From the IMG/VR virus record IMGVR_UViG_2563366824_000008: DNA of 41,432 nt; one strand, given 5' to 3'. Below, one piece after another: positions 9,004 to 28,775 of the stretch (the first letter of the stretch is position 1; each line of letters begins with the position of its first letter). The notes beneath the pieces are model-generated. The model did no database searches. It saw nothing but the letters and a program-made list of their open reading frames with translations, and was not told where the DNA came from. This DNA is from a virus (Duplodnaviria; Heunggongvirae; Uroviricota; Caudoviricetes). A program made the translations under genes and the position numbers.

Positions 9004-9015
9004 GTGACATGTCAC
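9004..9015. repeat. 12-bp perfect palindrome GTGACATGTCAC, copy 1 of 3
   Basis: Exact 12-mer also at 26499..26510 and 28764..28775; each copy sits just past the stop of a minus-strand gene. Confidence 0.8.
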
Positions 9016-9018
9016 GAC

Positions 9019-9432
9019 TTATAAAGATGACTGATATTTTACAACTCTGTTCATGGCATCTTTTTTCACCGAGCTGATATCAGTTCTTATTTTGGCTTCG
9101 TCATTACTGCTTATCATGCTATTAATTTTTTGCACTGACATGCCGTTTCTTTCAGCCATTGCACATACAGCAGCATCGTATGAAGAACTCGCTGCGATGG
9201 ATATCACCTTGTTACACTCAAACACAGCACCTTCAGCAATATCAGATGCCGATGAGGCTGGCTTGGTATAAGTCTTGACGTAGTGATCAATACAACTATC
9301 CTTCGCCGTCTTGGCAAGAGAAAAATCCATTTTAACTTTGTCGCAATATGCCTTATCAACACCGTCATAAACATCATAGGATGTCGAGCAAGCGGATATC
9401 AAAAATACCGATAACAGCAATAATTCCTTCAT
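9019..9432 (-). CDS. phage lipoprotein of unknown function
   Basis: 137 aa; signal peptide with lipobox LISACS; last gene of the virion operon before the plus-strand insert. Confidence 0.55.
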   Translation of the reverse strand: MKELLLLSVFLISACSTSYDVYDGVDKAYCDKVKMDFSLAKTAKDSCIDHYVKTYTKPASSASDIAEGAVFECNKVISIAASSSYDAAVCAMAERNGMSVQKINSMISSNDEAKIRTDISSVKKDAMNRVVKYQSSL

Positions 9433-9441
9433 TGTTGTTCC

Positions 9442-11916
9442 TTATTGCGGAGTGACATCCTGAGGTCGCCACCAGTATGTCTGGTTAAACTCTTTCTTTG
9501 AACGTTGCTCCATTTTACGCAAATAGCCTGGTGAAAAATACTCCTGCATCTGGTTAAAGATCATGTGATCGAGAGCCGCCTTCAAGTACCAGAGATTCGC
9601 ACCAGGCATCAAACCTTTCCCAAGCTTAACCAAATCACCACCAGTCTGCTCATTCTTCCCTTCCACAGCATTTAACGGTATGCCCTGAGCAATCTTCACT
9701 ACGTCATCAACCAGACCAGCTACCGGGCCAAGCATCGACGCTAGTGCGCCGCTCCCGTACCTGGTGTGGTCAGAGAAAAGAAAATCACCATACAACCCTG
9801 CCCCACCACCTTTTAAAAATGCATTTATCCAGAATTTAACCATGTTGTCACCGGTCATTTCTTTTGGATTTCTCCCATTAATAAGATCAGTAATCTGCAT
9901 GGAAAGAGCACCAAGCATGGTTGTGCTTGCTAAAAACGTTGCTATATATACCGCACGCCCACCAGCAGACGGCATCCCCATAGCTCTATGCCAGTGACGC
10001 ATAACTACCGAGATAGGGAACGATTTAAACAGGAAAACACTTCTCGTTAATTCACCTTTCCATGTTCCACGCTGAAGACCAGACCCTACGAACATCTGTT
10101 CACGTGCGCCCGGTGTAATAACAGCCATATCAACTTCTTCAGTTACGGCACCGAGCAGTTTACGCATTGCCTCAAATTTCACACGTTCAGGCTCACCAAG
10201 ATGTTTAACTGCTGAATCAGGGATACGCATAATGCTTTCCGGTGTCAGCATCGTATTATTACCGTTCCCCCAGTCCTCCTGTTGCGCCAGCTTCCATACG
10301 CTCCAGTCTTTGTCAGTAATCCCTTTGCTTTTCAGGATACGAAAATCAGAGTCATCGAGGCTACGAAGGTCTGGTGTCCGTGACACAACTTCTCCCAGGC
10401 TTCCCATCATGGTTACGCCATAAGCGCGCTTGTGAGCATCTGACCATGCTGTAAGCCCACTGGCACGCATTACCGCCGTTGCCGCCCAACGAGACACAGA
10501 CGGCCCCATATTATCCATCGCCCAGCGGTTAACGCTGCCAAGTAGAGATTCCATCGCCAGACCAGCGCGGCGCGCCCGCGCAAGCTCAGTACGGTTCGTT
10601 GGGTCCATAGCTTCAAGCTGGTTGCGGAATAACTGGTTCATTGGAAGGTTGGTAACCTTCGCAGACAGATATATGGTTCCAAGATCAGAGAACGATGACA
10701 GCAACGCGGATCCGAGCCTGCTGGCAACCAGCCAGTTTCTGATATTGTCAGACCAGCGCGCGATGTGAGGATTCGCAACAGGCTGTGTCTTTCCGGAAAT
10801 AAAGTTGTACAGGTTCTCTGTTTTGTTCGCCAGCCGCTCGACGCTACCGGTTTTACTCGGGTTAGCTGTTGCCGTTTCTGCCTTCACCTGATCAAGAAGG
10901 GAACGGAAAACATGATCGGGGTTTGGACCATATGTTTCCACCAGAGCAATATCTTTACTGATACCTTCCAGGTGACCAACCATGATTTCCCATAGAGAGC
11001 GATCACCATAAAGTTGCTGATATTGCAGATAGGAATCTGCATCTTTGAAATGTATCTGTCGTGATGCATTACCACGGTTAGCACGTGCGCCGGAAATTCG
11101 CATTCCGGTATCAGTAAGCTTATTCAGCCCACCAGTAGCGATCGTGTTATAAGCCTCTCCAAGAAATTCAGATAACTCGGCATCGTTCATCAGTTGTCCA
11201 TCGGCTCGGGTATAATATTTGCGATCCAGCTTACCTATAACATCGCTAACCCACTTATCCTTTGATACCGCCCCAACCTTTTCCATAGAATGATGTTGAG
11301 GGATCCCCCAGTTTTCGAGATAGCCAATGTCCCCACCAGCATCATTAAACCGGCGGCGCAGCAGCTCTGTAACTTCTCTCCACGCCTTAGCACCTTTTCT
11401 TGCTTTAGCATTGCCAGTATTTTGCCCCCGCATTTCATATACCAGGTCACGTACGCCCGCTTCATCTTCAAACAGACCAAAAAAGCGAGGATCAACTGCT
11501 TCGAATGCCTCCTGCAATTGACTCAATGCATAATCACGAGTGGCTTTTGTTCTGGACTCAACAGAGAGGAAATTCGATTTACCGTCTGCATTAAAAGCAA
11601 TAGTACGGTTAAGAGCGCCAAGTTTCCCATCAGCCCCTTGATAGCTATTGATAAATTTATCCAATCTCTGACGTGCGGCTATAGTGAGGGCCACACGACG
11701 TTTCTTTAATGCCGCTTCTCGCTGTAATTCTTCAGATGCCAATTGTGCTGCACGATATAGCCGCTCTGATTCGGAAAGTTGTCTCCACGACATCGGGTCA
11801 TCACGAGCAATGGAGCGCATATTTCGATAAATGCGGTCTTCAATGTTCTGTATTTCTCGCGCCGTTAACGTGCGCTGCGCCGCCTGCTGGACCGCTTGTA
11901 TACATTCCTGTCTCAT
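9442..11916 (-). CDS. large virion internal/ejection protein (T7 gp16-like position)
   Basis: 824 aa; tightly packed in the virion operon after two other large internal proteins; assigned by position and size only. Confidence 0.5.
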   Translation of the reverse strand: MRQECIQAVQQAAQRTLTAREIQNIEDRIYRNMRSIARDDPMSWRQLSESERLYRAAQLASEELQREAALKKRRVALTIAARQRLDKFINSYQGADGKLGALNRTIAFNADGKSNFLSVESRTKATRDYALSQLQEAFEAVDPRFFGLFEDEAGVRDLVYEMRGQNTGNAKARKGAKAWREVTELLRRRFNDAGGDIGYLENWGIPQHHSMEKVGAVSKDKWVSDVIGKLDRKYYTRADGQLMNDAELSEFLGEAYNTIATGGLNKLTDTGMRISGARANRGNASRQIHFKDADSYLQYQQLYGDRSLWEIMVGHLEGISKDIALVETYGPNPDHVFRSLLDQVKAETATANPSKTGSVERLANKTENLYNFISGKTQPVANPHIARWSDNIRNWLVASRLGSALLSSFSDLGTIYLSAKVTNLPMNQLFRNQLEAMDPTNRTELARARRAGLAMESLLGSVNRWAMDNMGPSVSRWAATAVMRASGLTAWSDAHKRAYGVTMMGSLGEVVSRTPDLRSLDDSDFRILKSKGITDKDWSVWKLAQQEDWGNGNNTMLTPESIMRIPDSAVKHLGEPERVKFEAMRKLLGAVTEEVDMAVITPGAREQMFVGSGLQRGTWKGELTRSVFLFKSFPISVVMRHWHRAMGMPSAGGRAVYIATFLASTTMLGALSMQITDLINGRNPKEMTGDNMVKFWINAFLKGGGAGLYGDFLFSDHTRYGSGALASMLGPVAGLVDDVVKIAQGIPLNAVEGKNEQTGGDLVKLGKGLMPGANLWYLKAALDHMIFNQMQEYFSPGYLRKMEQRSKKEFNQTYWWRPQDVTPQ

Positions 11917-11921
11917 TTAAT

Positions 11922-13724
11922 TTAACCTCTCAAGAAACACGCCACAGCGACATCAAACAGGCTTGAATCCTGTATTGCCTGCTCACTTTCCCTGTTCGCT
12001 TCATCCAGTACTTCACGCGCGCTGCGCGATTGTGGATTACCATCATCATCCAGCACGGTGATTATCATGTCAGGTGATTCAAGCAGCGAGTCTTCAGCTA
12101 TGCGCAGATCAATATCTCCCGCCTGATCCGCCATCATTTTTTGTTCTGCCTGTTGCAATATTTTATCAGGCTCAAAAGGAGCTACTTCGTCTGGCGTCCT
12201 GACCTCTGCTGTTTTATAGAATGAAACAGCCTGAGCATTAAGTTCACTTTCTGCCTGCTGTCTCCGAGCCAGTTCTGCTCGAGCTTCAAAAAACTGACCG
12301 CCAGGCTCGTGCGGTGCCAACGCGTTACGGGAAAATTCTAGGCGTTCTTGTGCCTGCCGGATTCGTTGATCAATATCGCGAAGTCTGGCCTGTTTATCTG
12401 ATCGAGCACGAGACAAAGCTTTACCGCTACCGGTTGGATCTTCTGCAAGAATTTGTGCACGCTGTTCAGTGAGATTTTCAATAATTCGTTGGCTATTAGC
12501 GATTTCAGACTGGTAAACCTGTCTATCTCCACGCGGCAAAAGCTGCGCGGCCTGTTCTTCAAGCAACCGATTTTCTATAGCGCGCGCCGTTACTCCATCA
12601 TCTACAGATGACAGAGCCTCATTAACTGCCTGAGACAGCAGACTCTTGCGCCCAGGAATTTCACTGAAAGATGCAGACTCAACAATGCTGGCAACGTCTA
12701 CAGGTCTCCCTTGGCTAACATCAGACATAGCTTTTCGCAGAGCCTGAATGTGAGAATTGCGCGAAAGCACGTTGATAGACACGCCTGGCGCAATATCAAT
12801 TTCAGCATGATGAGCGGCATTCGCCGCCAGTGCAGCATCGATATCAACTGGTGAAAAATTTGGTGCGTTTATAGACTCGCCGCGAGAGTTAATAAATCTG
12901 CCTACACCACCAAACGCCACCCCAAGAACAGCATCAATAGCAATTGCCTGTCGATCCAACACATCATACTGGTTAGCCATTTCGCTATAGCCACCATCAC
13001 GAAGCGTTTTTGCAGTAAGCCCACGCTGTGCCATACCAAACGCAATATTTGTACCTGCGGCATAGGCAATATCTGGCGTTGCACGTACTGCTGTTGCTGC
13101 GGCGCGTCGCACTGAACTCTCACCCGTCCGCGCAAGCTGAGCCGCCACACCTTCCGCCAGCGCACCACCAGCACGTAACCCGAGGCTCATAGGGATCAGT
13201 GTTCCGGCACCAGCAGTAATGCCCTGCACTAATCCCGCTTCCTGCGCCGTCCTGAAATCAACACCCTGTGCTGTCAGCCGTTCAAACTCAGAAAAACCCT
13301 GTAGCGAAGTTACCGCCGCTGCACCTCCGACAGGACCACCGAGCGTTGTACCGACAACAGCCTGCCCGCCCATATCGAACAACCCATAAAGAACCTGCCC
13401 GGCGGTTCCGGTTGTCGCGGCATCAGGCGTCAGCCGCTTAACCTGCTGCTCTGCTAGTTTTCTCTGCTCAGCAATGTATGAAACTGAAGTGTCATTGAGC
13501 GAGGTGTTTTCGTTAACAAACTGAGCAATCGGGGATACGATTTTATCCATCCCTGCCCATAGCAACTGATCTGGCTTTGCCACCAGTCCGGAGTACAAAC
13601 CAGACAATGCCGCTCCTACAGCATTGTCGAAAAAACCAACATCGCTGTTAAAGCCAGCTGGATTTGATGCTGCTTCGTCAAGCTGCTGATTCTGGTTTAC
13701 TGGATTAAGGCCAAAGTAACTCAT
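11922..13724 (-). CDS. virion internal/ejection protein, Gly/Ala-rich
   Basis: 600 aa; Gly/Ala-rich segments; 4-nt overlap with the upstream gene. Confidence 0.5.
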   Translation of the reverse strand: MSYFGLNPVNQNQQLDEAASNPAGFNSDVGFFDNAVGAALSGLYSGLVAKPDQLLWAGMDKIVSPIAQFVNENTSLNDTSVSYIAEQRKLAEQQVKRLTPDAATTGTAGQVLYGLFDMGGQAVVGTTLGGPVGGAAAVTSLQGFSEFERLTAQGVDFRTAQEAGLVQGITAGAGTLIPMSLGLRAGGALAEGVAAQLARTGESSVRRAAATAVRATPDIAYAAGTNIAFGMAQRGLTAKTLRDGGYSEMANQYDVLDRQAIAIDAVLGVAFGGVGRFINSRGESINAPNFSPVDIDAALAANAAHHAEIDIAPGVSINVLSRNSHIQALRKAMSDVSQGRPVDVASIVESASFSEIPGRKSLLSQAVNEALSSVDDGVTARAIENRLLEEQAAQLLPRGDRQVYQSEIANSQRIIENLTEQRAQILAEDPTGSGKALSRARSDKQARLRDIDQRIRQAQERLEFSRNALAPHEPGGQFFEARAELARRQQAESELNAQAVSFYKTAEVRTPDEVAPFEPDKILQQAEQKMMADQAGDIDLRIAEDSLLESPDMIITVLDDDGNPQSRSAREVLDEANRESEQAIQDSSLFDVAVACFLRG

Positions 13725-16234
13725 TGCGGAATATCTCCGGAGAATCTCTGACGCTTCTGTGTCAGATTAAGAACAACGGGAGAACCATCATCTTTCAGCA
13801 GATAACCAGTACCAAGTTTCACCAGGTACTGACTATCGCCGTAACTTTGCAAACCATACTGACCAGGCGGTGTTTTTATCCCGGAGCCGACAACTTGTTC
13901 ATTCCAAGCCTGATTAACCTGCTTATCGAATTGCTCTGCAGACATTCCCCACGGCAAAAGGACATTCCCCATTCCGTTATAGTCATGCACTCCACCTGTA
14001 GCTACGTTAACAGCCTGTTTCCAGACATCATTGTCAATTTCGCCTGATACCACGCCTTTTTTCGCCATCACACCAGCGTAATAATCCTTTGCGATCTCGT
14101 ATGCCATTGATGCCCCCTGAACGTCACCAGCAAATGCATCCTTCACCATGTCAGAAAACTCAAGGCGAAGATCAGCATCTTTAGGCATCGGAATACCTTT
14201 CGCATCATCAGTACCTTTACGAGCCGCCGCGCCAGCAAGAATTGTCTGCGCAGCGGTTTCAGGAGACACGGAAACATCCGGATTAAACCAGTTTTTTTCT
14301 GCCAAAATACCACCAGGCTTATCCATCAGTATCCCGGCAACGGCAGCAGATGGAGCGTTGGCACTGATCTGCTGTAGTGCTGACATATACACCTGCCCAC
14401 CACCAGTGCTCTGCCTGATGGTATCGAGATATGCTGCCTGTTGGGAAACTGGAGCATCACGAAAGAAAACACCGATCTGATTGGCCTCGTCTTTGGAAAA
14501 GAACGTCAGTGGAGTGCCATATGACTTAGCAAGGTCACTGACCTGAGCGGCACGCAAGGCAACGCTCTGTCCAAAGTTATCCTTATTGCTCATGTCGATA
14601 GGCTTTGCCTGTCCTGAGGCAAGAGAGAACTGCACAGGATCCGACTGCCGCTGCTTTATCACCTGATTTGCAGCCGAAACAACGTTGTCATAAAGAGCTG
14701 CGCGAGACGCATAACCCTCCCCTGTCTCACCAGTATCCGGGCGTAATTGCTCAACATATGCTGTAATGCTGCTTGTCGGCATGTTGCGGAAAGAGCCTAT
14801 ATACTGTCCGGCGATCTGCGTATTCTTAAAATCGGTATATCGCAGGTTTCCTTCTCTGACTCCATAAGCTGCAATAAAATCAGCCTCACCAGGTGGGTTA
14901 GGAAATTCAACGCCACGCATATACGCAGCCGTCGCATCGCGAACCTGGCTGTCAATCATCGTTTTATATTCAGCCTGCTGCTGCCGACGCAGTTGATCCG
15001 CCTGCCGCATAAAACTTGCCTGAGCCTCAGGAGATGCCGCATCGAATGCTGCATTACCGGTATAGCGTTTGGTGTTGGTTGGAATTGTTGATAAACCAAG
15101 TGCTGCACTGACACCAGCAGTTAACTGCTGATCACTGTATGGCTGGCTACCGTTCTCATGATGGATAATGGCTGCACAAAGCGCCTTCAGGGTATCAGGA
15201 TTAGATGCATCGAGAGGCTCATCAGCAGAAACGCCAAGTTGTTCGCACACTGCTTTGATATACGACATAGTGTCATTTTTATCAGCAGGCGGTGCCCAGC
15301 GATTAATTATCTCGCTGACGGTATCAATACCCTGCCTCTGATACGACATCAGGTTCCGCCCTAATGCACGAATCCCGTGTTCAGGTGTTTCGAATTTAGC
15401 AAATCGACCATCATCACCGGTCTGGCCTACCCACGGATTAGTTTTGCTGTATTCGAGATTTCCTGGGTTATTGTTGCGTATGCCACGGGCACGCTCGGAA
15501 GAGTCACTATCTGCTACAGCACGGCGAGCTCCAGCAGCAGTATCACTTAACTCGCCATTACTTTGGATGAATGCGGTCGCATTGTTTGCCGACCACTGGG
15601 ACAATGCAGCATCAGCAACCTTCTCTTTAAACTCGATTTTCTTGGCCTGGATTTGCTCGTTGCTCCAGCCATGTGCAACACCGTACTCCTCAATTTGCTG
15701 GAAAGTTTGCTTGTTAGCCAATACGTATGCGGCGTTGTCGCCATACAATGCTGCGGCATTTTTACCATTGTTCAGCAGTGTCGCCTGAAACTGGCCTTCT
15801 TCGTAGGCATTAATTTGCCCTATCTCGTGTCGCCCGGCCTGCGTAGTGAACTGAATGCGCTGCTGCTGCGCCTGCTGCATGAAAGCATTACGAGCCTGTT
15901 CATCCGGCAGCGACATAGCCAGTTGTTCGACCTGAGCATCAAACTGCTGCGTATACTCATGGCCTTTTCCAATAGCATTTTTCCCTTTCAGGTTAAGCAA
16001 TCCTGTTTCAGGATTATTCAGCAGATCGCTGCTTATCTGACTGAGGTTAAGAGATGCCTCCTGAGCCAGAGCGATATTGGCACGCTGTTTTGCCTGCCCC
16101 AAAACATCAATTGCCTTTGTCCCTGCCCGAACAAAAGCATCACCAATACCTTGCTGAGAAAACGTCTGCAAGCCTGCTGACTGAACTCCACGACTCTCAA
16201 CCTGACGTCCGGATACTGTTGGTACGACTGGCAT
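13721..16234 (-). CDS. large virion internal protein with a conserved RNNNPGN-containing domain
   Basis: Start set at the internal ATG with RBS GGAGG (ORF 13721..16309), abutting the stop of the upstream gene; 838 aa; function of the motif region not established. Confidence 0.5.
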   Translation of the reverse strand: MPVVPTVSGRQVESRGVQSAGLQTFSQQGIGDAFVRAGTKAIDVLGQAKQRANIALAQEASLNLSQISSDLLNNPETGLLNLKGKNAIGKGHEYTQQFDAQVEQLAMSLPDEQARNAFMQQAQQQRIQFTTQAGRHEIGQINAYEEGQFQATLLNNGKNAAALYGDNAAYVLANKQTFQQIEEYGVAHGWSNEQIQAKKIEFKEKVADAALSQWSANNATAFIQSNGELSDTAAGARRAVADSDSSERARGIRNNNPGNLEYSKTNPWVGQTGDDGRFAKFETPEHGIRALGRNLMSYQRQGIDTVSEIINRWAPPADKNDTMSYIKAVCEQLGVSADEPLDASNPDTLKALCAAIIHHENGSQPYSDQQLTAGVSAALGLSTIPTNTKRYTGNAAFDAASPEAQASFMRQADQLRRQQQAEYKTMIDSQVRDATAAYMRGVEFPNPPGEADFIAAYGVREGNLRYTDFKNTQIAGQYIGSFRNMPTSSITAYVEQLRPDTGETGEGYASRAALYDNVVSAANQVIKQRQSDPVQFSLASGQAKPIDMSNKDNFGQSVALRAAQVSDLAKSYGTPLTFFSKDEANQIGVFFRDAPVSQQAAYLDTIRQSTGGGQVYMSALQQISANAPSAAVAGILMDKPGGILAEKNWFNPDVSVSPETAAQTILAGAAARKGTDDAKGIPMPKDADLRLEFSDMVKDAFAGDVQGASMAYEIAKDYYAGVMAKKGVVSGEIDNDVWKQAVNVATGGVHDYNGMGNVLLPWGMSAEQFDKQVNQAWNEQVVGSGIKTPPGQYGLQSYGDSQYLVKLGTGYLLKDDGSPVVLNLTQKRQRFSGDIPQ

Positions 16235-16779
16235 TATAATCCTCCGGGTAATCTGGTTCCTGCTGCTGCCCCGATTGGCGCAGGAGTGCTTTGAGTAAAC
16301 GGACTCCACGTCCCACCAAACATCTGGTACGCACCGTATGCCTTCAGAGGCGCAGTGAGCAATGTTGTTGCTGCTCCCACATTCCCCTGTTTACGGGCTG
16401 AACTGGCTTCTGCTTTATAGTTGGCAGCCTGAACCTGATAACCGTAAGCCTCGCGTTGCGCGTTATTCACCGTCGTCAGCGAATCAAGAGCGCCAAACTG
16501 GGCAGTGTCGCCAAATATATCCAGCGCGTTACCTGTAGATAAATCAGCGCCGGTAGCCCCCATTGTCGCCGCCTGTGTACCAAGCCGCTGTCGGGTCTCT
16601 CTGCGTCGTTGCTCAGCTTCAGCGTTACCTCTGTTTATTGCATCATTTGCCTGAGCTGTGGCTATATCTGCGTTCGCTTCTGCAACCTTCGAGGCATACT
16701 TTCCCTGTTGGTACTGGGTGTATGCCTGAATGCCACTCATGGCGAGCATTGCGCCACCAGCAATAACCGGATCGCACAT
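16234..16779 (-). CDS. virion internal protein (gp14-like position)
   Basis: 181 aa, Ala/Gly/Gln-rich; assigned by position. Confidence 0.45.
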   Translation of the reverse strand: MCDPVIAGGAMLAMSGIQAYTQYQQGKYASKVAEANADIATAQANDAINRGNAEAEQRRRETRQRLGTQAATMGATGADLSTGNALDIFGDTAQFGALDSLTTVNNAQREAYGYQVQAANYKAEASSARKQGNVGAATTLLTAPLKAYGAYQMFGGTWSPFTQSTPAPIGAAAGTRLPGGL

Positions 16780-17243
16780 TATTTTCTCTCCATGTGAAAT
16801 CTGTGGAAATTAAGACCAAGAGCACCATAAGGCGCGGCTTCTTCAAGCCTGAATCCAAGCCAGTGCAGCCATGCTTTGGCAACATGGTTTCGCTCGTCGA
16901 CGTAGTTTTCCAGGCGCGGATAAACTGCCAGCATCTGCTGCAATACAGGGCGGCAGTGGCGCAGAAATGTCTTCTGATATTTTTCAATACGGCTGGTTCC
17001 TACCAGCCATGGCGTACCATTGCCACCGATCATTGACGCCGGAGATACACCAAACATGGTTACCAGTTCTCCGTTCGCGAACCCTGACCAGGCCATAGTC
17101 GCAGTGCGAAGACCAACGCGCAGCGCATCTTCGGTAGTCATCAGCGATACCGCATACAGTTCGTCAATATCAGCCTGACGAACATCCGGCAAAATCATCT
17201 GAAGATGCTCTTCGGTAGCGGGAATAATTTGAACATCGATCAT
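16779..17243 (-). CDS. virion protein (gp13-like position)
   Basis: 154 aa; 1-nt overlap with both neighbours. Confidence 0.45.
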   Translation of the reverse strand: MIDVQIIPATEEHLQMILPDVRQADIDELYAVSLMTTEDALRVGLRTATMAWSGFANGELVTMFGVSPASMIGGNGTPWLVGTSRIEKYQKTFLRHCRPVLQQMLAVYPRLENYVDERNHVAKAWLHWLGFRLEEAAPYGALGLNFHRFHMERK

Positions 17244-20648: not shown

Positions 20649-20692
20649 TCCTGCAATAAAGGGGCCGAAGCCCCTTGTCTGATTCGCGAGGC

Positions 20693-21037
20693 TTACACGC
20701 CCAGTTCTTTACGCTTATCTGCGATCTTCTCGCGGAGCGTTTCGGCTTTGGCGTTATGGCGTGGCTTCTCGTTAAAGAGCAATTCGTACTCTTCACGGAG
20801 CTTATCCAGTTCACCATCATCTGACACATCGTTGATGATTTTGGTGCTGGTTGCTGCCATAGACACCTTTCCTGCTACCTTTGCTTTTGCCTGTCTGGCT
20901 GCATCGTTAACAGGTTCCAGTGCGCTACCAGGCTCACCTTCGTATTCGATTTCTGCCCCCTCCGGCCACAGTGTGTTATGGATATGAGAGAGGCGCAGAA
21001 CGCGGTATCTTGGTTTCTCACCTGACATCGAAATCAC
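20693..21037 (-). CDS. virion-associated hypothetical protein
   Basis: 114 aa; charged C-terminal helix. Confidence 0.4.
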   Translation of the reverse strand: MISMSGEKPRYRVLRLSHIHNTLWPEGAEIEYEGEPGSALEPVNDAARQAKAKVAGKVSMAATSTKIINDVSDDGELDKLREEYELLFNEKPRHNAKAETLREKIADKRKELGV

Positions 21038-21038
21038 C

Positions 21039-21476
21039 TTAACCAGTTACTTTTGAGCGGATCGGGTACGGTGTATTGGCATCAACATCCAGACTGATAC
21101 CCGCAGTGAATTTGCCGGCCGTTAGTGGGCCAGTTGCGACGGAGTAGTTAACACGCAGATATCGCTGAACACCGGCAGGCACCTTTGCAGAAACAACTCG
21201 TTTACCTGCTGTCAGGGTAGCCTTTGCCAGTGCGCCACTATCATAAATAGTGGACCATGAGCTGTTATTCTCACTCGTCTGCAACTGGATGTTTACAGTT
21301 GCCTCACCACTTGCCGTGGCGGCTTCGTTAACCAGCGCCCAAAACTCAAGCGGGTAACCCACGCCGATATCGCGACGATTTCCATCAATTGGACCTAGAT
21401 CGATTACGTCAGTAGAAGCCGCGGTATCAGTTACCGCCTGTGCTTCGGAGAACATCAACAGTTTGTCGGTGATCAT
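21039..21476 (-). CDS. putative capsid decoration or accessory protein
   Basis: 145 aa; immediately downstream of the major capsid gene; Thr/Ala/Gly-rich. Confidence 0.4.
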   Translation of the reverse strand: MITDKLLMFSEAQAVTDTAASTDVIDLGPIDGNRRDIGVGYPLEFWALVNEAATASGEATVNIQLQTSENNSSWSTIYDSGALAKATLTAGKRVVSAKVPAGVQRYLRVNYSVATGPLTAGKFTAGISLDVDANTPYPIRSKVTG

Positions 21477-21527
21477 CTTCTTTCTCCATTAGTGGGCCTG
21501 TTACGACCCACAGGTTAATAACAGGCG

Positions 21528-22520
21528 TTACACCACGCGGGCTTCTGTTTCCAGAAGCGCATCAGTTTCACGGATTGGTACACCACGGAATGAAGTCCAC
21601 CACTCGCCTTCTGTCTCTTTTACGCTGATCGCCAGAGATGTTTTCTCCAGAGATTGCAGATCAAGAGCCTGGCCTACAGTGCGGTTCATGTAGAACACCG
21701 GGCGACCCATTCCACGGTTTGGAATGCGATGCAGTGCTTTAACCATCAACTTCGCAATATTTGCGGCAGAGGAAGGTTCTGAAAGATTGCTGACATCGAT
21801 GTTTGCAATGCGAACAACATAACGCCAGTCACGCAGAGCAAGTCCGTTGTCCCATTTGTAATGGGTGCGATAGCCTTCGTACTTGCCGCCATTAGCATCT
21901 TCCAGTGTCACCTGGCCTTTATCTTCCATCTGGATGCCAGCCTTCTGCCCTTTCGGGAAGATGCCATGCACGGTGTTTTCGCCCCACACCACTAACCAGA
22001 TTGAGGTGTTATCTGTACCCGTGCCACCAGCATCAATGATGTTCTGAGCATTACCCGCAGACAGGCTGGAATAGCGGGAGGACAGTCCCATAAACTGCTG
22101 AGGGTTAACGCTGGAATCACCATAAAACAGCGTCTGCGCCATCTGCTGATTCATCGCTTCAATAAATGCGCGGTCTTCAGACAGGCGGAATTCAGCGGTA
22201 TTGCCGTTCAGATTAGCCAGTGACTTATCGACTTCAGCATAGGTTTCCAGCATGCCAACGGAATCGGTTACCTGCACTGTGGTTGATTTGCTTGGCTGTA
22301 CGCCATAGTTCAGCAAACGCCAGGTAGCTGAAGGTAAACCAGAACGAATGGTGGTTCGGTGTCCGGTAGGAAGGTTCCCTTCGACAAAAGGCATATCCTG
22401 AAGGATCGGGTTAGTTTGACCGAGAAGCTCGATAATCTTATCGACTTTCCCGTTTGGATCGACGCGCTTACCCCAGTCAGCCAGCGTTAGCGCAGTTAAG
22501 CCTTTAACAGCCATTGTCAT
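21528..22520 (-). CDS. major capsid protein
   Basis: 330 aa; follows the scaffold gene; size and composition typical of HK97-fold capsid proteins of T7-like podoviruses. Confidence 0.7.
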   Translation of the reverse strand: MTMAVKGLTALTLADWGKRVDPNGKVDKIIELLGQTNPILQDMPFVEGNLPTGHRTTIRSGLPSATWRLLNYGVQPSKSTTVQVTDSVGMLETYAEVDKSLANLNGNTAEFRLSEDRAFIEAMNQQMAQTLFYGDSSVNPQQFMGLSSRYSSLSAGNAQNIIDAGGTGTDNTSIWLVVWGENTVHGIFPKGQKAGIQMEDKGQVTLEDANGGKYEGYRTHYKWDNGLALRDWRYVVRIANIDVSNLSEPSSAANIAKLMVKALHRIPNRGMGRPVFYMNRTVGQALDLQSLEKTSLAISVKETEGEWWTSFRGVPIRETDALLETEARVV

Positions 22521-22528
22521 TTCCTCTC

Positions 22529-23230
22529 TTATTTGCCATAGAGCACTTCGGCCGCACTACGCTGGCCTTCATTACCACCGGTGACCATGCCATCTTCAGA
22601 CATCGCCTTTCCGATTTTCACGAACGTTTTGACCAGATCAGGGTGATTACCCAGCCCGGTGGTGTTCAGATATTCTTTGAGTTCAGGTGTCCCGAACTGG
22701 TCAAGCGCACGCTGTGCGGCGCTAAGGTTAGAAATCAACTTGTCGCCACCGATTTCTTTGTCAGCTTTTACATCCGCAGCCCACTGCTCGGTTGTTTTCT
22801 GCCAGGCTTCTGCCTGGCGCTGCTGAACACCTGCCAGAATCTTCGGATAAGCATCAACCAGCTTTTGCGCTTGCTCGTTGGTCAGGTTAAGTTCTCGCGC
22901 CACCGGCTCGAATTCCTTCAACGCTTCTGTATCCAGCTCTACGCCTTCGGCAGCCTGAAACTCGTACTTCTCAGGCGCACCCTCTGGTTTATCGCCGTCC
23001 TTTTTTTCATCCTGCTTATCGTTTTCAGGCTTTTTGTCATCAGCAGGTTTATCGCCATCAGCAACAGGTTGTGGCTTATCACCTTCCTGTTGTGATGGAT
23101 CACCAACTGGAGCAGGGTTATCACCTGCAGGCGCTGACGGTTCTGACGCAGCCGGAGCTGCTCCACCATCGACTGGTTGCTCATTGCAAAGACGGCGATA
23201 CAGCAAACGCTCAAATAAATTCATGATCAC
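22529..23230 (-). CDS. scaffolding protein
   Basis: 233 aa; acidic, Pro/Asp/Lys-rich low-complexity N-terminal half and helical C-terminus; lies between portal and capsid. Confidence 0.55.
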   Translation of the reverse strand: MIMNLFERLLYRRLCNEQPVDGGAAPAASEPSAPAGDNPAPVGDPSQQEGDKPQPVADGDKPADDKKPENDKQDEKKDGDKPEGAPEKYEFQAAEGVELDTEALKEFEPVARELNLTNEQAQKLVDAYPKILAGVQQRQAEAWQKTTEQWAADVKADKEIGGDKLISNLSAAQRALDQFGTPELKEYLNTTGLGNHPDLVKTFVKIGKAMSEDGMVTGGNEGQRSAAEVLYGK

Positions 23231-23523
23231 TCCTGTTCACTGGCCTCTTTGGCCATCTTCAAATACTGTTCAGGGCAATGCGCCATAACGCGCTGAAACA
23301 GTTCCAGCGCCAGATTGCGTTGCCCCTCATTAAATGCCATTGCCATAGCGTCCATCGGTGAGATAGCGGAAAACACACGGCCTTTCTCCAGCACCGACCA
23401 GACAACGCGACGCCCCTGTTTACTGCTCATGACAAAGCGAATGTCATCAATTTCACGCTGCGCCATGTCACGTTGCTTACGGGCGTTTTCTTCTTTCAGT
23501 TGATCGTCTTCGTAATCTGTCAT
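23227..23523 (-). CDS. hypothetical head-module protein
   Basis: 98 aa; 4-nt overlaps with portal and scaffold genes. Confidence 0.4.
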   Translation of the reverse strand: MTDYEDDQLKEENARKQRDMAQREIDDIRFVMSSKQGRRVVWSVLEKGRVFSAISPMDAMAMAFNEGQRNLALELFQRVMAHCPEQYLKMAKEASEQE

Positions 23524-25199
23524 TGTGATTGCCCACCCTGACCACTAACTGCATTCGCCATAGCTGACAAAACACTCGGATCAGAAGTTTTAGCTTCGCT
23601 TAGCGTTTTGGCACCCTGTGCCGCCGCCATCCCCATCGCCATCATTTGTTGCTGCTGTTGCTGCTGTGCCCGTTGCTGGCGAGCCTGCTCAACCTGTTCC
23701 TGCGGAACAATGACGGTTGGAGACACTCCGGACATATCAGCGAATGCATCGATCGCCTGATCAACGTTGAGTTTGTCGAGAGCTTCTGGTTTCGCTTGCG
23801 CAAGTTGACCAATGAAGTTAACCGTGGACGCCAGACTGGACAGGCCGATAGACTTCTGCGCCTGAGCCATGACGGAAATGTATTCGACCTTCAGGGGCAT
23901 ACCTTCCATCACGTCTGGCGGTGGCGGCAGCATGTTTTTACGCACCATCATCGAGAAAGAGCGATCAATGAGAGGATTAAGACATTCGTCGTTCAGGCGC
24001 TCCAGAACCGGCCCCAACATCAGAAGTTTTTCTTCTTTCATTTCGATCACCGCTTCCACAGGCATCGAGCGGGTATTGATGTTCTGCAACATCATGAACA
24101 GATCGACAAAGTAGGCGCTGTTAATGATTTGACGAGTGTCCTGAATGTCTGCCACCAAATCTGCTGTACTGGGGTTAACCAGATAAGCAGGCCTGAAACC
24201 ATCCTGACCAGTAATCTGATCGATATACGTGATGTCGCCAGGAAGAAGGGAGGCACGCTGATTCTTGAGGGAAGTCGGAGCAACCATCGGCGGATTGGTG
24301 GCTTTATCAATCAACTGCGACTTGCGCTTCTGGAGAAGCTGCAATGCCTTAACAGGTCCAAGCGCCAGCATACCAGGGCATGATGATCCATAAACATCTT
24401 CGCCATTAACTTCCCAGCGCGGAGCCATAATTGGAAACTCATCGAATCCGGACTCACGCAACAACTTGTCGTTATCGCCACCAACCTCGTAATAAACCGA
24501 TTTGAATGGCTTGTTCTTGCTATCCAGCTTCGATGTATCGCGGTCAATGTTCGGGTAAACCGAATGCATCACTTCAATCCACTTCTCGTAGGTGCCGCTT
24601 TCCCACATGCTTTTTACGGATTCGCTGACGTTATTTAGCCCGAACTCCTGAACAAGCTGACGAACAGTCATAGAGAACTTGCGAAAACAGGTGTCCACAC
24701 TGCCACGAGGTGAGTTAGCCAGGTAGTAACTGCCTATCGGGAATGGCATTGTGCGAATGATGTCCTCATCATCCTCCAGCACTGCCATTGCACCAGTGCT
24801 ATATGTGCCTAGGCTTCCGTATAACTGCGGCAGTGACTGATAGAGATTCGACTTATTGAACATATCGTTCATGCGGTTCTGCACCGCCTCAAGCCACAAC
24901 TTAACAGGGCCATAATCCATCATTTCAGGATCTGGCGTAGCCAGGCGAAACCACGGACGCGCGGGGCTTGTGATGCCTGACATCATGCCGCTGGCGAGAG
25001 TGCGCGCCGCCATAGTCCCGGTCGAATCAATAATGCGTGTATTGCGTCGATCGTTACGGTTGACCTCAGAAGTCAGAAAGCGGGAACCACGCGGGTTGAT
25101 GTAATCACTCAACTCGCGCCAGTGCGGCTCGAACGACTGACGCTCGCTTTCAAGTTGTGCGAACTGTTTGTTCAATCGCTCTTTAGTTGTTTCCGCCAT
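23520..25199 (-). CDS. portal (head-to-tail connector) protein, T7 gp8-like
   Basis: 559 aa; C-terminal Gln/Ala/Met-rich tail; follows the large terminase across the tRNA insert. Confidence 0.7.
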   Translation of the reverse strand: MAETTKERLNKQFAQLESERQSFEPHWRELSDYINPRGSRFLTSEVNRNDRRNTRIIDSTGTMAARTLASGMMSGITSPARPWFRLATPDPEMMDYGPVKLWLEAVQNRMNDMFNKSNLYQSLPQLYGSLGTYSTGAMAVLEDDEDIIRTMPFPIGSYYLANSPRGSVDTCFRKFSMTVRQLVQEFGLNNVSESVKSMWESGTYEKWIEVMHSVYPNIDRDTSKLDSKNKPFKSVYYEVGGDNDKLLRESGFDEFPIMAPRWEVNGEDVYGSSCPGMLALGPVKALQLLQKRKSQLIDKATNPPMVAPTSLKNQRASLLPGDITYIDQITGQDGFRPAYLVNPSTADLVADIQDTRQIINSAYFVDLFMMLQNINTRSMPVEAVIEMKEEKLLMLGPVLERLNDECLNPLIDRSFSMMVRKNMLPPPPDVMEGMPLKVEYISVMAQAQKSIGLSSLASTVNFIGQLAQAKPEALDKLNVDQAIDAFADMSGVSPTVIVPQEQVEQARQQRAQQQQQQQMMAMGMAAAQGAKTLSEAKTSDPSVLSAMANAVSGQGGQSQ

Positions 25200-25213
25200 T
25201 TCAATGACTCCGG

Positions 25214-25420
25214 TTACTGACCAAGCAGCGTTTTACCGCTGGTATTAGCGGTTGATGTGTCGCCCTGAGAACCGGTAAGCAGCGTAGAACTACGACCAGC
25301 AGCAGCGCGACGGCGACGTGTTTCTTCGTCGCGGGCATCAACAACGGCGGCATCCTGCTCCTGTGGTGCTGCCTGAACTTCTGGTGTTGCAGGCACTGAT
25401 GGTGAGCTACCCATGCACAT
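25214..25420 (-). CDS. small hypothetical protein upstream of portal
   Basis: 68 aa, Ala/Arg-rich; weak RBS; could be spurious. Confidence 0.3.
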   Translation of the reverse strand: MCMGSSPSVPATPEVQAAPQEQDAAVVDARDEETRRRRAAAGRSSTLLTGSQGDTSTANTSGKTLLGQ

Positions 25421-25510
25421 ATCAATGACTCCGTACGCAATTAAATTATTACCAATTTAACCACATATGATTTATTTATCGTAGAAGGTTGACATTTGAC
25501 GCGTGAATTA

Positions 25511-25525
25511 TTACCTTTCAGGTAA
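25511..25525. promoter_or_regulatory. candidate repressor operator TTACCTTTCAGGTAA with adjacent TTGACA
   Basis: Perfect motif copy; TTGACA at 25489..25494 immediately upstream; 320 nt before the tRNA. Confidence 0.45.
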
Positions 25526-25847
25526 CTAAAGAGCTCATTCCGGCTACTAACCTGACTGGCTTGTCGTTAAATTGAACAGGTAGAGTGAGATTTTATTTTG
25601 AGCAGTACGGCGTATGGCACATGCGCCGATAGCGGTCTGGATACGTTTAAGGGGCACCCTCCCTTGCTCGGGCAAACGAACCAGGTAGCCGGAATGTGCA
25701 AGTCGAGCGGTTTTATTCCGCGCACGGGGATTCACCATCCCGGCGATTCGGTGTGACGCCTCGGAAGAGACGAGGGTACAACGATGAGAGCATTTATGGA
25801 GCCGCGACAAAGTGTGGCGCCTTAACAGGCTAAGTGCTCTCAGCGTT

Positions 25848-25924
25848 GTGGCATTAGCTCAGTTGGACAGAGCAACCGCCTTCTAAGCGGTTGGTCGCAG
25901 GTTCGAATCCTGCATGCCACGCCA
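25848..25924 (+). tRNA. tRNA-Arg, anticodon UCU (argU-like)
   Basis: 77-nt cloverleaf folded by hand: acceptor GTGGCAT/ATGCCAC, D arm GCTC/GAGC, anticodon stem ACCGC/GCGGT with loop CTTCTAA, T arm GCAGG-TTCGAAT-CCTGC, discriminator G, encoded CCA. Confidence 0.9.
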
Positions 25925-25967
25925 GAATCACGCCTAAGGACCGTGATACCAGAAGTTCCAGGTGCTT

Positions 25968-26010
25968 GGCGGTGATGGTTTCCCTTGAAGGACTATCACC
26001 GCCCTTTTTA
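25968..26010 (+). terminator. rho-independent terminator after the tRNA
   Basis: GGCGGTGAT ... ATCACCGCC 9-bp stem followed by CTTTTTA. Confidence 0.5.
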
Positions 26011-26122
26011 CAGCAGGACGCCATTGCGATGACTTCATGCTGTAAACCCGTACAGCCACGGAAGGCATAACTCATTGCTTCCAGTTCGCCCGGTTCGCCG
26101 GGCATTTTTTTAAGGTGAGATT

Positions 26123-26494
26123 ATGAACGACCAGCAAATCGAAAAAGAAATCGTTGAGAAAGGCAAAACGGCACCGCGCGTTACGCCAGACCATATCGAA
26201 GGCATTATTGCTCAGGAGGCATATTTCACAGCAGAAGATGGTGCCTTTGGCAAAGCCATAAAAGCGAAACATACTGGCGGAGAGGTAAACTACCAGCCGC
26301 ACGAATCACTTTCTCTGCTGACGTTCTGCGTCCTGGTGCTGCGCAACGGCTTCACCGTCACCGGAGAGAGCGCCTGTGCAAGCCAGGAAAACTTTGATGC
26401 AGAAATTGGTCGGAAGATTGCCCGGCAGAATGCTGTAAACAAAATCTGGATGCTCGAAGGTTACTTGCTGAAGCAGAAGCTAAGCGAGCAATAA
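26123..26494 (+). CDS. hypothetical phage protein (possibly Gp49-like)
   Basis: 123 aa; RBS AAGGTGAG; on the opposite strand to flanking terL and portal; family assignment from memory only. Confidence 0.6.
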   Translation: MNDQQIEKEIVEKGKTAPRVTPDHIEGIIAQEAYFTAEDGAFGKAIKAKHTGGEVNYQPHESLSLLTFCVLVLRNGFTVTGESACASQENFDAEIGRKIARQNAVNKIWMLEGYLLKQKLSEQ

Positions 26495-26498
26495 CACC

Positions 26499-26510
26499 GT
26501 GACATGTCAC
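26499..26510. repeat. 12-bp perfect palindrome GTGACATGTCAC, copy 2 of 3
   Basis: Exact repeat; 5 nt after the 26494 stop and about 75 nt after the terL stop. Confidence 0.8.
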
Positions 26511-26512
26511 AA

Positions 26513-26540
26513 ACAGCCAGCCGATGAGCTGGCTTTGTTT
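26513..26540 (+). terminator. rho-independent terminator of the tRNA insert
   Basis: AGCCAGC-cgatga-GCTGGCT followed by TTGTTTT. Confidence 0.55.
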
Positions 26541-26584
26541 TATCCTCATCAGAGGATATCAACGACATTATCCCCACCAGCGGA

Positions 26585-28060
26585 TTAAGCATATGGATCG
26601 TAATCTGTGATGGCCTTGCCTTGCTGGTTCTGCTGCCCGGGAATTCGCAGACGCTTCGACACAGGGAACGCAAACGTCAGCAGTAGCGCATCGCCTTTAC
26701 CAGGAGAACGCCCAAGCCGCTCCTTGATATCTTCCTTCGGTTCGATAACGATTTTACCGTCCACTCGAACTTTGTACTCTGCCGCAGACAGGTCGTCCGC
26801 TGTTTCCTGGTCATCCAGCATGCCGCCCAGCCTCAGCCATGTCTTACATGAGTTGAACATCTCCCCACGCTTGTTAAGCATCTGCGGGTCAGTGGACGCA
26901 CCGCCGAACGGAACAAGTTGCCATGTACGTCCCCAGCCATCACCGATTGACTTCAAACCGGTTCCGTAACCGAAGTCGATGAACACCGCGTCAGCCTGAT
27001 ACTGGTCTTCAAAGTCAGCGATACGCTTCGCCATAATCAGATCGTCGGTTGTCTTGTTGCCAGTCCATAGCACCTTACTGTGCAGCCCCTGCCGCAGGTA
27101 TATCGCCGCGTCATCAACGCCTGAATATGCCGGGTCAACACCGATTATCACCGGAGCATGCGCCACCTGCGCAGCGGTTACCACCCGTTTCATTGCCTCA
27201 TCAGTAAGACCGGTAGGGATAAACTGCAATTCAGATGCATCAGGGAATATGCCGCGCACACGGATTTTAACGAAGTCGCTGTCTTCCCCGTAGTCATCAA
27301 CCCATTTCTGCAACTGCTGTTTGTTAGTGCCTTCCACCGTCCGGCTGTCAATCTGCGCAGTTTTCCAGCGGTGTTTATATTTGCGGAAACATTCACGGAA
27401 TCGCCCGGTATTACGCGTCGGGTTTCCGAACGCCACCCAGATAATCTCAGTGTCTTCGTCCGTTAGCGCACCTTCGGCAACTTCCCACACCAGATCCGCA
27501 ATATTCGACGCTTCATCGAATACCACGATGATGCGTTTGCGCTCGTTGTGTAGTCCGGCGAATGCCTCAGTGTTGTGCTCAGACCAGGGGATTGCGTCAG
27601 CTCGCCACCGCTTGTCGTGTCCAGGGTCATTGCTGTACATCGCGGTAGCTGTACAGGTAAACCAGTCTTTCGTGATAGCAAGGTTTGACCACTTGATAAT
27701 TTCCGGCCAGGTCTTCGTTCGTAGCTGGTTGTCGGTGTTGGCGGTCACCACGACCTTACAATCCTCGCAAGTGGACATGCCCCAGTTGATCAGCATTGAG
27801 ATGAATGCGGATTTACCAATACCGTGACCCGAAGCACGTGCCAGCATAAGCGGCTGATAGCGCGTCTCTGGATTCTGCAGGTGATCACGTATCTCTCGGA
27901 ACGCATCGGCCTGCCACTGACGTGGACCGGTGGCATGTGCCAGTTCAGTACCCTCTTCCCCCCACGGGAACGCATAGAGGGCATAGCCAAGCGGATCGTG
28001 AGTGAACCCTGCAATATCCTCGATCAACTGCTCTTCAGGAGATAACGCTGTATCTGTCAC
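26585..28060 (-). CDS. terL: terminase large subunit
   Basis: 491 aa; Walker A-like GHGIGKS; acidic ATPase motif VVFDEA; C-terminal nuclease-like region; 4-nt overlap with terS. Confidence 0.85.
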   Translation of the reverse strand: MTDTALSPEEQLIEDIAGFTHDPLGYALYAFPWGEEGTELAHATGPRQWQADAFREIRDHLQNPETRYQPLMLARASGHGIGKSAFISMLINWGMSTCEDCKVVVTANTDNQLRTKTWPEIIKWSNLAITKDWFTCTATAMYSNDPGHDKRWRADAIPWSEHNTEAFAGLHNERKRIIVVFDEASNIADLVWEVAEGALTDEDTEIIWVAFGNPTRNTGRFRECFRKYKHRWKTAQIDSRTVEGTNKQQLQKWVDDYGEDSDFVKIRVRGIFPDASELQFIPTGLTDEAMKRVVTAAQVAHAPVIIGVDPAYSGVDDAAIYLRQGLHSKVLWTGNKTTDDLIMAKRIADFEDQYQADAVFIDFGYGTGLKSIGDGWGRTWQLVPFGGASTDPQMLNKRGEMFNSCKTWLRLGGMLDDQETADDLSAAEYKVRVDGKIVIEPKEDIKERLGRSPGKGDALLLTFAFPVSKRLRIPGQQNQQGKAITDYDPYA

Positions 28061-28653
28061 TGATTACCATCCTGACGTTCTTTGAGTCGCTTCCTGGCTG
28101 CTGCTATGCGATCAGCAATTGTCACATTCACATTAACATCCAGACGTTCTTTGAACGCGTTGACATCAACATGCTTACCAATCAGTTCTAGGTTCTTCAC
28201 CTTGTCAGGCCATTTAATTTTTTTGAGGATTGTCTCTATCGAATCCTCGTTCATGTTCATGATGGTCGATGACAGATCAAAGCCACTAAGCGTAGTGCGC
28301 CAGATTTTCGGCCACTCACGGATTGGTTTAAGGCTCCCATCGTCGTTGAGGATATCGATCACGTCCATCTGGTCGATCTCCACCAGGCGCATGAGAACGT
28401 AATCAGCACTGACGCGCATTCGTTTGTTGCGCTCCTCCATCAACTCGGCAATCCGTTTTTGAATGCGTTCATCGCGCATCATGACACTGGCTTTAACTGC
28501 CGCTGTATTTGGGGAAAATCCTGCGTTAATCGCTGCCTGAGTCTGGTTTTCAGGCGTTTTGATGTATGACTGGCAATAAGCCTCCTGCATTGCTGTTAGT
28601 GGCTTAAATTGCGTTGATTTGCGTTTATAGGTTTTAGGTTCAGCAGGCATCAT
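28057..28653 (-). CDS. terS: terminase small subunit
   Basis: Start set at internal ATG-ATG with GGTGG RBS (ORF 28057..28731); DNA-binding N-terminal region; directly upstream of terL. Confidence 0.65.
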   Translation of the reverse strand: MMPAEPKTYKRKSTQFKPLTAMQEAYCQSYIKTPENQTQAAINAGFSPNTAAVKASVMMRDERIQKRIAELMEERNKRMRVSADYVLMRLVEIDQMDVIDILNDDGSLKPIREWPKIWRTTLSGFDLSSTIMNMNEDSIETILKKIKWPDKVKNLELIGKHVDVNAFKERLDVNVNVTIADRIAAARKRLKERQDGNQ

Positions 28654-28763
28654 AACCACCGTGGTAATAGTTACCGTTGTGGTAATAGTACCATGCAAAA
28701 TAAAGCCGCCATAGTTGGCGGCAGTATTCAAAACCCATCAAATTCATCATGCATAATCTACTC

Positions 28764-28775
28764 GTGACATGTCAC
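28764..28775. repeat. 12-bp perfect palindrome GTGACATGTCAC, copy 3 of 3
   Basis: Exact repeat overlapping the stop of the 28772..29113 gene, about 30 nt upstream of the terS ORF. Confidence 0.8.

Follow-up and report, generated by a model that had tools for sequence, protein, structure and literature searches.

Why should a prophage keep the same perfect 12-bp palindrome at three separate places? The question was raised by the 41,432-nucleotide (nt) IMG/VR virus record IMGVR_UViG_2563366824_000008 (hereafter the window, which means this whole stretch of DNA), an epsilon15-like (Uetakevirus) prophage that is of the same type as phiV10, TL-2011b and PAS61 and has its late genes on the minus strand. 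A first-pass annotation, made from the letters of the window, had reported three exact copies of GTGACATGTCAC and had proposed that they could be sites for a phage DNA-binding protein, a recombination hotspot or a packaging-related signal. Here we argue that the three 12-mers are probably the cognate double-stranded DNA sites of a protein of 112 amino acids (aa) encoded next to one of them on the minus strand, which is predicted to form a ribbon-helix-helix (RHH) dimer and to carry a basic N-terminal helix and a C-terminal four-cysteine (Cys4), putatively zinc-binding, module.

The palindrome lies at the ends of three transcription units

An exact scan of the window and a scan with the relaxed pattern GTGACNNGTCAC returned the same three sites and no other, which we call copies A, B and C (Table 1) and which are those that the first-pass annotation had listed. 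The closest non-exact match to GTGACATGTCAC carries two mismatches and lies in the portal gene. The general form GTGAC-N2-GTCAC was observed three times, compared with an expectation of 0.04 +/- 0.24 from 100 dinucleotide-preserving shuffles of the window, none of which reached three. Furthermore, among all 1024 motifs that consist of a 5-mer, two free bases and the reverse complement of the 5-mer, GTGAC ranks top or joint top in the window. The identity between copies A, B and C extends to a 14-mer, CGTGACATGTCACA.

Read in the late direction, the window runs from the 112-aa gene, which is the last early-right gene and bears copy A, through 41 nt to an intrinsic terminator, two Rep-type operators, terS and terL, and then through a hairpin, copy B, a plus-strand moron, the virion genes and a lipoprotein gene to copy C and another terminator. 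This map of genes and hairpins therefore places each copy at the 3' end of a transcription unit. The positions that had been claimed relative to the stops of minus-strand genes are accurate: copy C is 3 nt past the lipoprotein stop and abuts its terminator hairpin, copy B is 74 nt past the terL stop, and copy A contains the stop of the 112-aa gene. It was likewise correctly noted that two copies adjoin hairpins at plus-strand inserts (copy B is 4 nt past the stop of the moron and 4 nt before the hairpin) and that the third, which precedes the next hairpin by 41 nt, is upstream of terS.

The 12-mer is conserved at the same junctions in epsilon15-like phages

A search of related phages for the 12-mer, which the first-pass annotation had proposed as a check, found the same junctions occupied. 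The identical sequence is present at all three in epsilon15 (39612, 2142 and 19517), PAS61, the Enterobacter phage Tyrion and phiV10. The phiV10 record (L003, NC_007804.2) is linearised inside copy A, such that it ends in GTGA at position 39104 and begins with CATGTCAC at position 1, and therefore a linear scan misses its third copy. O157 typing phage 9 has three junction copies, one of them with a mismatch, and TL-2011b and the Klebsiella phage BUCT711 have copies A and C only, with copy B absent. Copy C was found in every epsilon15-like genome examined.

The 12-mer stays exact in these phages while its flanks, the adjacent hairpin sequences and the neighbouring genes differ. The slot at copy B contains varied genes in relatives, always in the order of stop, 3-4 nt and palindrome, and the slot that the lipoprotein gene occupies before copy C contains different genes. 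When IMG/VR was scanned with the 14-mer, more than 10 different modules were found 3' of copy A, among them the terS leader, an open reading frame (ORF) that starts with MPKIRYDLEDM and a UmuD-like gene behind a LexA-box promoter, and in every case the palindrome stays with the 112-aa gene rather than with terS.

Among the IMG/VR relatives, L009, L010, L027, L038, L119 and L125 have a module other than terS 3' of copy A. In some of these relatives a perfect LexA box (CTGT-N8-ACAG) overlaps a sigma-70-like promoter that leads into a UmuD-like or antirepressor-like gene, and in others the ORF beginning MPKIRYDLEDM starts 8 nt past the palindrome.

Junctions of this type could represent recombination joints, in which the palindrome would be a hot spot or target for the exchange of gene cassettes such as morons and alternative late modules. 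Homology between relatives does break at the palindrome or no more than 4 nt from it, for copy A in more than 10 different contexts and for copies B and C in several, and the variable side holds different genes. However, the breaks fall on stop codons, as they do in phage mosaicism of the ordinary kind, and no recombinase is associated with the sites. The copies within conserved coding regions (N15-like repA, gp08 and gp12 of ZF40 and virion genes of BUCT711) are not mosaic joints, and a 12-mer that remains exact over deep divergence must be under selection for its own sequence. A recombination hotspot is not needed to account for mosaic joints that fall at gene ends beside a conserved functional element, and we consider this explanation very unlikely.

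We find it hardly credible that the palindrome is a packaging signal, whether as pac or as another terminase recognition site, even though copy A is upstream of terS, one copy in the Vibrio phage K303 is 20 nt before terS and some distant members of the 112-aa family adjoin DUF1441 (Nu1-like) terminase small-subunit genes. In relatives with another downstream module, it is the regulator gene and not terS that the site accompanies. There are also several copies per genome, and the carriers have different terminases and strategies (cos-type, headful and phage-plasmid), with the sites far from cos in P2-like phages. The earlier suggestion of a packaging-related signal is thus without support.

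The palindrome is linked to the 112-aa gene in distant phages

Homologues of the 112-aa protein were detected by tblastn in quite different phages. For the counts in epsilon15-like, N15-like and Yersinia loci, loci were retrieved by protein homology only, and the motif was no part of the selection. Among the complete epsilon15-like loci, 76 of 79 contain the exact 12-mer with its TGA as the stop codon. A site overlaps the stop in all 50 N15-like loci (GTGACTGGTCAC or GTGACGGGTCAC), and in P2-like Yersinia phages (42% identity) the site GTGACGCGTCAC is at the homologue's stop in 47 of 51 loci and 9 nt further on in the other four. GTGAC-N2-GTCAC overlaps or abuts the stop of the homologue in at least eight phage lineages besides the epsilon15-like one, with homologues that are only 25-40% identical (N15-like, P2-like Yersinia, ZF40, Vibrio and metagenomic), and the spacer is 2 bp in ~170 independently retrieved related loci.

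The individual genomes illustrate how widely this arrangement has been kept. The Pectobacterium myovirus ZF40 (66% identity) has three exact copies of GTGACATGTCAC, one of which is 3 nt after the stop of the homologue, and a ZF40-like locus (L262) shows the overlap of site and stop. For phiKO2 and the N15-like phage-plasmids (37% identity), the TGA in GTGACTGGTCAC is the stop codon, and of two more copies one is in repA and the other upstream of the ant operon. In a Vibrio cyclitrophicus phage (35% identity), GTGACAGGTCAC is at the stop and a second copy is upstream of parA, and K303 has three 12-bp copies, which include the one before terS described above. Among the metagenomic representatives at 25-38% identity, P0291, P0263 and P0268 still have the site at the stop, the last with a spacer of 1 bp. 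The site is at the gene start in P0216 and P0255 and ~200 nt downstream of the gene in P0243, and in P0273 it has changed symmetrically to GTTACACGTAAC, with GTTAC..GTAAC half-sites. Genomes that carry the gene hold 2-4 copies of the site. In contrast, P2 and the N15-like phage PY54, both of which are without the gene, have no occurrence of GTGAC-N1-3-GTCAC in the genome.

Across the lineages, the central dinucleotide is AT, TG, GG, GC, GT, AG, CG, TT, AC or CC, with both half-sites invariant. A free centre between fixed half-sites is the pattern expected of a two-fold symmetric protein on duplex DNA and not of an RNA hairpin. This distinction bears on the explanation that the palindrome is an RNA element, i.e., a hairpin with a 4-5 bp stem and a CNNG loop that precedes terminators and serves either as a nut-like loading site for the arginine-rich N-terminus of the protein, with antitermination as the outcome, or as a 3'-end stabiliser or processing signal. 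In accord with such a role, all three copies in the window precede an intrinsic terminator by 0-41 nt on a transcribed strand, P2-like copies and one N15-like copy have terminators ~70-115 nt downstream, and the gene has a Q-like position at the end of the early operon. We also take the N-terminus of the protein, AERKAAQRARQ, to resemble arginine-rich RNA-binding motifs. However, the palindrome alone yields only -1.2 kcal/mol, folds no better than shuffled sequence and has no T-run, which indicates that it is not itself an intrinsic terminator. An invariant 'stem' with a variable 'loop' centre is the opposite of how RNA hairpins evolve, and there are no compensatory changes except for the one symmetric change. 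Furthermore, asymmetric centres occur in both orientations relative to transcription, copies are present in coding regions and directly before ribosome-binding sites, and the predicted fold of the protein is a DNA-binding one. An RNA element is, in our estimate, quite unlikely.

The 112-aa protein is predicted to adopt an RHH fold

Sequence and profile searches with the 112-aa protein yielded no significant match in Pfam, NCBIfam, PADLOC or PDB. PHROGs assigns it to phrog_536, which is labelled 'transcriptional regulator', and all other database names are 'hypothetical protein'. The family comprises 204 clusters at 50% identity, with members that almost always stand alone and are 100-135 aa long. 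We modelled the monomer with AlphaFold2, for which the alignment was deepened with representatives of the 50% clusters; the resulting 71-sequence alignment gave a predicted local distance difference test (pLDDT) score of 93.7 and a predicted template modelling (pTM) score of 0.71, compared with a pLDDT of only 60 for a 27-sequence alignment. The model consists of a basic helix (residues 5-18), an extended segment (~22-28), two helices (30-42 and 52-74), a Cys-x2-Cys...Cys...Cys knuckle (79-99) and a short C-terminal helix. From this model, the protein is predicted to have the beta-strand, helix, helix fold of the RHH (Arc/MetJ/CopG) superfamily. A Foldseek comparison of the model with PDB and BFVD added little.

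The family has one long member, P0244 (398 aa), in which the RHH/Cys4 region is at 293-387 and is preceded by weak, below-threshold matches to TerL ATPase and nuclease domains. This protein may be a gene-call fusion.

A proposed site-protein pair and its possible roles

Given that the sites exist, are conserved and are linked to the gene in distant phages, and that the fold is predicted to be RHH, we infer that the protein binds as a dimer to YGTGAC-N2-GTCACR, an element that would consist of two invariant GTGAC half-sites and two uncontacted central base pairs. With the half-sites of matS and a spacer reduced from 3 to 2 bp, such elements would constitute a private, matS-like site set for the phage. 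One site is physically fused to the 3' end of the proposed binder's own gene, as parS and sopC follow parB and sopB, and in epsilon15-like phages the remaining sites stand beside intrinsic terminators where the packaging and virion transcription units have their 3' ends. We thus favour one of the ideas in the first-pass annotation, a site for a phage DNA-binding protein, with what it called the zinc-ribbon protein as the candidate; its more specific suggestion of a late activator or antiterminator is unsupported, as there are carriers that have their own Q or Ogr.

Several points weigh against this proposal. The distant family members P0203, P0225 and that of an Aeromonas phage have no motif nearby. 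Linkage of a site to a gene is no proof that the gene product binds the site. The occurrence of sites by terminators, in coding regions and before ribosome-binding sites presents no single obvious mechanism. Finally, the half-sites are identical to those of matS, GTGACRNYGTCAC, and a host factor that recognises GTGAC half-sites is conceivable.

The obvious host factor is MatP, an RHH protein that organises the Ter macrodomain. The hosts of the lineages with the motif are Escherichia, Salmonella, Klebsiella, Enterobacter, Pectobacterium, Yersinia and Vibrio, all of which belong to the enterobacterial/Vibrio clade that has MatP. If MatP or another host factor bound the sites, it could tether phage DNA to MatP, ZapB or the divisome, or displace MukBEF, and the adjacent gene would be a mere neighbour. 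One true 13-bp site of the matS consensus, GTGACACCGTCAC, is present in K303 (L131, 19491-19503), where its TGA is the stop codon of gene 0027. The matS consensus bound by MatP is 13 bp, GTGAC-RNY-GTCAC (PMC6907758), such that the inverted half-sites are those of all three phage copies and the 3-bp spacer (R-N-Y) differs from the 2 bp (AT) of the window sites; the window has no match to GTGACRNYGTCAC even with one mismatch. MatP is an unlikely binder because the spacing is wrong in ~170 loci, because the site tracks the phage gene, with the stop codon inside it in many lineages, and because P2 and PY54, which share these hosts and are without the gene, are also without the site. Furthermore, the co-varied half-sites GTTAC..GTAAC in one lineage would not be tolerable for a conserved host factor. 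We consider it unlikely that MatP or another host factor binds the sites in place of the phage protein.

For sites bound by the phage protein, we considered several roles. Promoter control is argued against by three features: copies B and C lie between convergent genes, other carriers have copies inside coding regions (N15-like repA, ZF40 gp08 and the cII-like gp12, and BUCT711 virion genes), and the distance between copy A and the downstream promoter varies among relatives. A promoter in which GTGACA is the -35 element was rejected, as only a weak GTGACA-18-CATGAT was found at copy A, which is not conserved in epsilon15, and copies B and C have nothing of the kind. An obligatory role in termination or antitermination is argued against by the several copies that have the Shine-Dalgarno sequence and ATG of the next gene directly after them, and by the carriers that have their own Q (ZF40 and phiKO2) or their own Ogr (P2-like Yersinia phages). 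This co-occurrence also led us to reject a late activator, or Q analogue, as the general role. A roadblock terminator was rejected by inference from geometry, in which RNA polymerase would stall before the hairpin is transcribed, if co-directional, or inside it, if from the opposite side.

Because the copies are found between convergent genes or within coding sequence rather than at promoters, we lean toward a landmark, boundary or bridging role over classical promoter control, with low confidence in the specifics. The bound sites may insulate or bridge the ends of transcription units or organise phage DNA, which is more speculative than the binding. The arrangement of a binder gene, an adjacent site and dispersed, promoter-independent copies resembles the logic of ParB-parS, SopB-sopC and MatP-matS, which is a further reason to favour a landmark. 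A more specific version, which we judge rather unlikely, is that the phage encodes, in the 112-aa protein, its own functional analogue of MatP with private spacer-2 sites and with a Cys4 module that engages MukBEF or other complexes of the structural maintenance of chromosomes (SMC) type, ZapB or the divisome. Such an analogue might also bind host matS, as rare sites of the family have spacers of 1 or 3. If this version is true, SMC complexes, including Wadjet-type defences, could be kept off the phage genome, or alternatively phage DNA could be positioned or bridged during replication and packaging.

Features beside the three copies and other repeated motifs

The features of the window that accompany the palindrome are listed in Table 1.

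Table 1. Palindrome copies in the window and the genes, terminators and operators beside them.
Feature	Position	Strand	Remark
Palindrome copy A	28764..28775	.	Its minus-strand TGA is the stop codon of the RHH/Cys4 112-aa gene
Palindrome copy B	26499..26510	.	Between the terL-side hairpin and the plus-strand moron stop
Palindrome copy C	9004..9015	.	Between the stop of the last virion-operon gene and the operon terminator
112-aa gene, proposed binder (epsilon15 gp49 / phiV10 p55 / N15 gp46 family, phrog_536)	28772..29110	-	
Intrinsic terminator (hairpin and T-run), 41 nt 3' of copy A, before terS	28705..28722	-	
Plus-strand moron's intrinsic terminator, 4 nt beyond copy B	26515..26534	+	In the minus-strand reading, follows terL
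Intrinsic terminator of the virion operon, abutting copy C	8986..9003	-	
Two Rep-type operators (TTACC-N5-GGTAA), between terminator and terS	28653..28685	.	Separate site family; equivalents annotated as repressor binding in the epsilon15 record
Moron gene, PF13876 (N4 gp49 / Sf6 gp66 family)	26123..26494	+	Stop 4 nt from copy B
Lipoprotein gene, last of the late operon	9019..9432	-	Lipobox LISAC; ends 3 nt before copy C

The moron segment at 26120-26487 is ~98% identical to a segment of Stx2a-converting phages, whose lambdoid backbone is otherwise unrelated, which indicates a recent cassette exchange beside copy B. The plus-strand insert that converges on copy C (8152-8978), which matches TL-2011b at 99% identity and is absent from phiV10 and PAS61, encodes a small membrane protein and a protein with a YafO-like toxin domain (PF13957).

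The palindrome TTACC-N5-GGTAA forms a second dispersed family in the window, with 10 exact copies and three that have one mismatch (6520, 6900, 7950, 25511, 28671 (+28653), 31986, 32048, 34379 (+34331), 35091 and 35153). Copies are located upstream of terS and of the gp3-like gene as well as around the immunity region and close to the tailspike region, a distribution that suggests direct action of the prophage repressor on several late units. The epsilon15 / SPC32H Rep operator (ATTACC-N5-GGTAAT) was ruled out as an identity for the 12-mer, as it has a different sequence and forms a separate set at 10 other places in the window.

Other motifs of similar form were also observed. The same half-sites with a 5-bp spacer, GTGACAACTTGTCAC, occur once in the window, at 31171-31185 inside an early-region ORF. 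GATAA-N2-TTATC has three copies in the window (11650, 19598 and 22431), all of them within virion genes, and recurs in phiV10 and PAS61, probably as a coincidence of coding in genes that are conserved. In phiKO2 (L130 / L322), CCAGC-N2-GCTGG and CGACC-N2-GGTCG have four copies each, and one of the two may correspond to the annotated dispersed 'plasmid partitioning sites' of this phage. The IMG/VR contigs L026, L074, L112, L045 and L055, which the 14-mer scan returned, have dense arrays of 5-10 CGTGAC / GTCACG repeats within ~150 bp, in coding sequence beside acidic low-complexity linkers. These arrays resemble origin iterons inside a probable replication-initiator gene, as in lambda O, and probably belong to an unrelated system.

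Novelty and significance

Literature searches with GTGACATGTCAC and the variants of the other lineages gave primers and unrelated matches only, and searches on the regulation of epsilon15, SPC32H and Uetakevirus and on phage MatP/matS, for which literature coverage is incomplete, returned nothing relevant. Within this coverage, no paper was found on the 12-mers, on what the protein family does or on matS-like sites of phages. The site-protein pair thus appears to be undescribed, although the kind of element, an RHH protein with a palindromic site, is familiar. What is distinctive is the combination of a site embedded in a stop codon, at least five phage architectures, and matS half-sites with a spacer that is off by one. 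The pairing would explain a recurrent, conserved 12-mer at the module boundaries of Uetakevirus genomes, which genome annotators have overlooked, and would give an orphan family that has no Pfam family or solved structure a DNA site that is precise and testable. The gene region is present in 1152 of 5426 complete E. coli genomes (~21%). The identity of the half-sites further raises the question of whether there is cross-talk, or deliberate orthogonality, between phage genomes and the terminus organisation by MatP and MukBEF.

Comparison with known systems

The first-pass annotation had stated that the palindrome does not fit CRP or LexA sites, with which we agree, and had missed the identity of its half-sites with matS. 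The CRP consensus is TGTGA-N6-TCACA, and the window site is at best TGTGA-N4-TCACA; a LexA site does not fit the palindrome. The SlmA site GTGAGTACTCAC is likewise a 12-bp palindrome with outer GTGA....TCAC. However, within the SlmA half-site G-T-R-A-G-Y, positions 1, 2, 4 and 5 are critical, G is required at position 5 and a pyrimidine is preferred at position 6 (PMC3020112), which rules out the phage half-site GTGACA with its C5 and A6. SlmA is also a TetR-family helix-turn-helix protein, whereas the phage protein is predicted to be RHH.

The comparison with MatP extends to the protein. Six diverse members of the phage family had no Pfam match even at E <= 10, the MatP domains PF06303 / PF17414 included, and an hhalign comparison of the 71-sequence family profile with E. 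coli MatP gave E 0.13 and a probability below 1%. MatP consists of a four-helix bundle, an RHH domain and a C-terminal coiled coil, whereas the phage model has a single basic N-terminal helix, RHH, the Cys4 knuckle and a short C-terminal helix. The phage pair differs further in that the protein is phage-borne and one site is fused to the stop codon of its own gene. With no detectable homology to MatP, the pair is matS-like in its probable mode of working and does not belong to the MatP/matS family.

The predicted beta-alpha-alpha fold is also that of RHH regulators such as P22 Arc and Mnt, AmrZ, ArtA, CopG and the antitoxins of toxin-antitoxin systems, which recognise short (pseudo)palindromes through a beta-ribbon in the major groove, as would be expected for the phage protein. 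Those regulators work at promoters, where they usually bind longer operators as dimers of dimers, whereas the phage pair has a single 12-14 bp site at gene ends and an additional Cys4 domain. The position of the gene recalls lambda Q/QBE and N/nut, in which the regulator gene is likewise last in the early rightward operon and is followed by the site and then by a terminator before the late genes. However, the protein has no homology to Q or N, its gene co-exists with a genuine Q or Ogr elsewhere, and the sites, some of which lie within coding regions, are symmetric palindromes of DNA.

Partition cassettes provide a parallel in layout. The phage pair differs from ParB and SopB in that it has no ParA partner, no ParB fold and a different motif, and most of its carriers are integrating prophages that need no partition system. 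Nevertheless, in ParB-parS and SopB-sopC the gene for a site-specific DNA-binding protein directly precedes its cognate palindromic site, as we propose for the phage pair, and further copies in N15-like phages are dispersed through the genome like the SopB centromere sites of N15 and phiKO2, as annotated in phiKO2.

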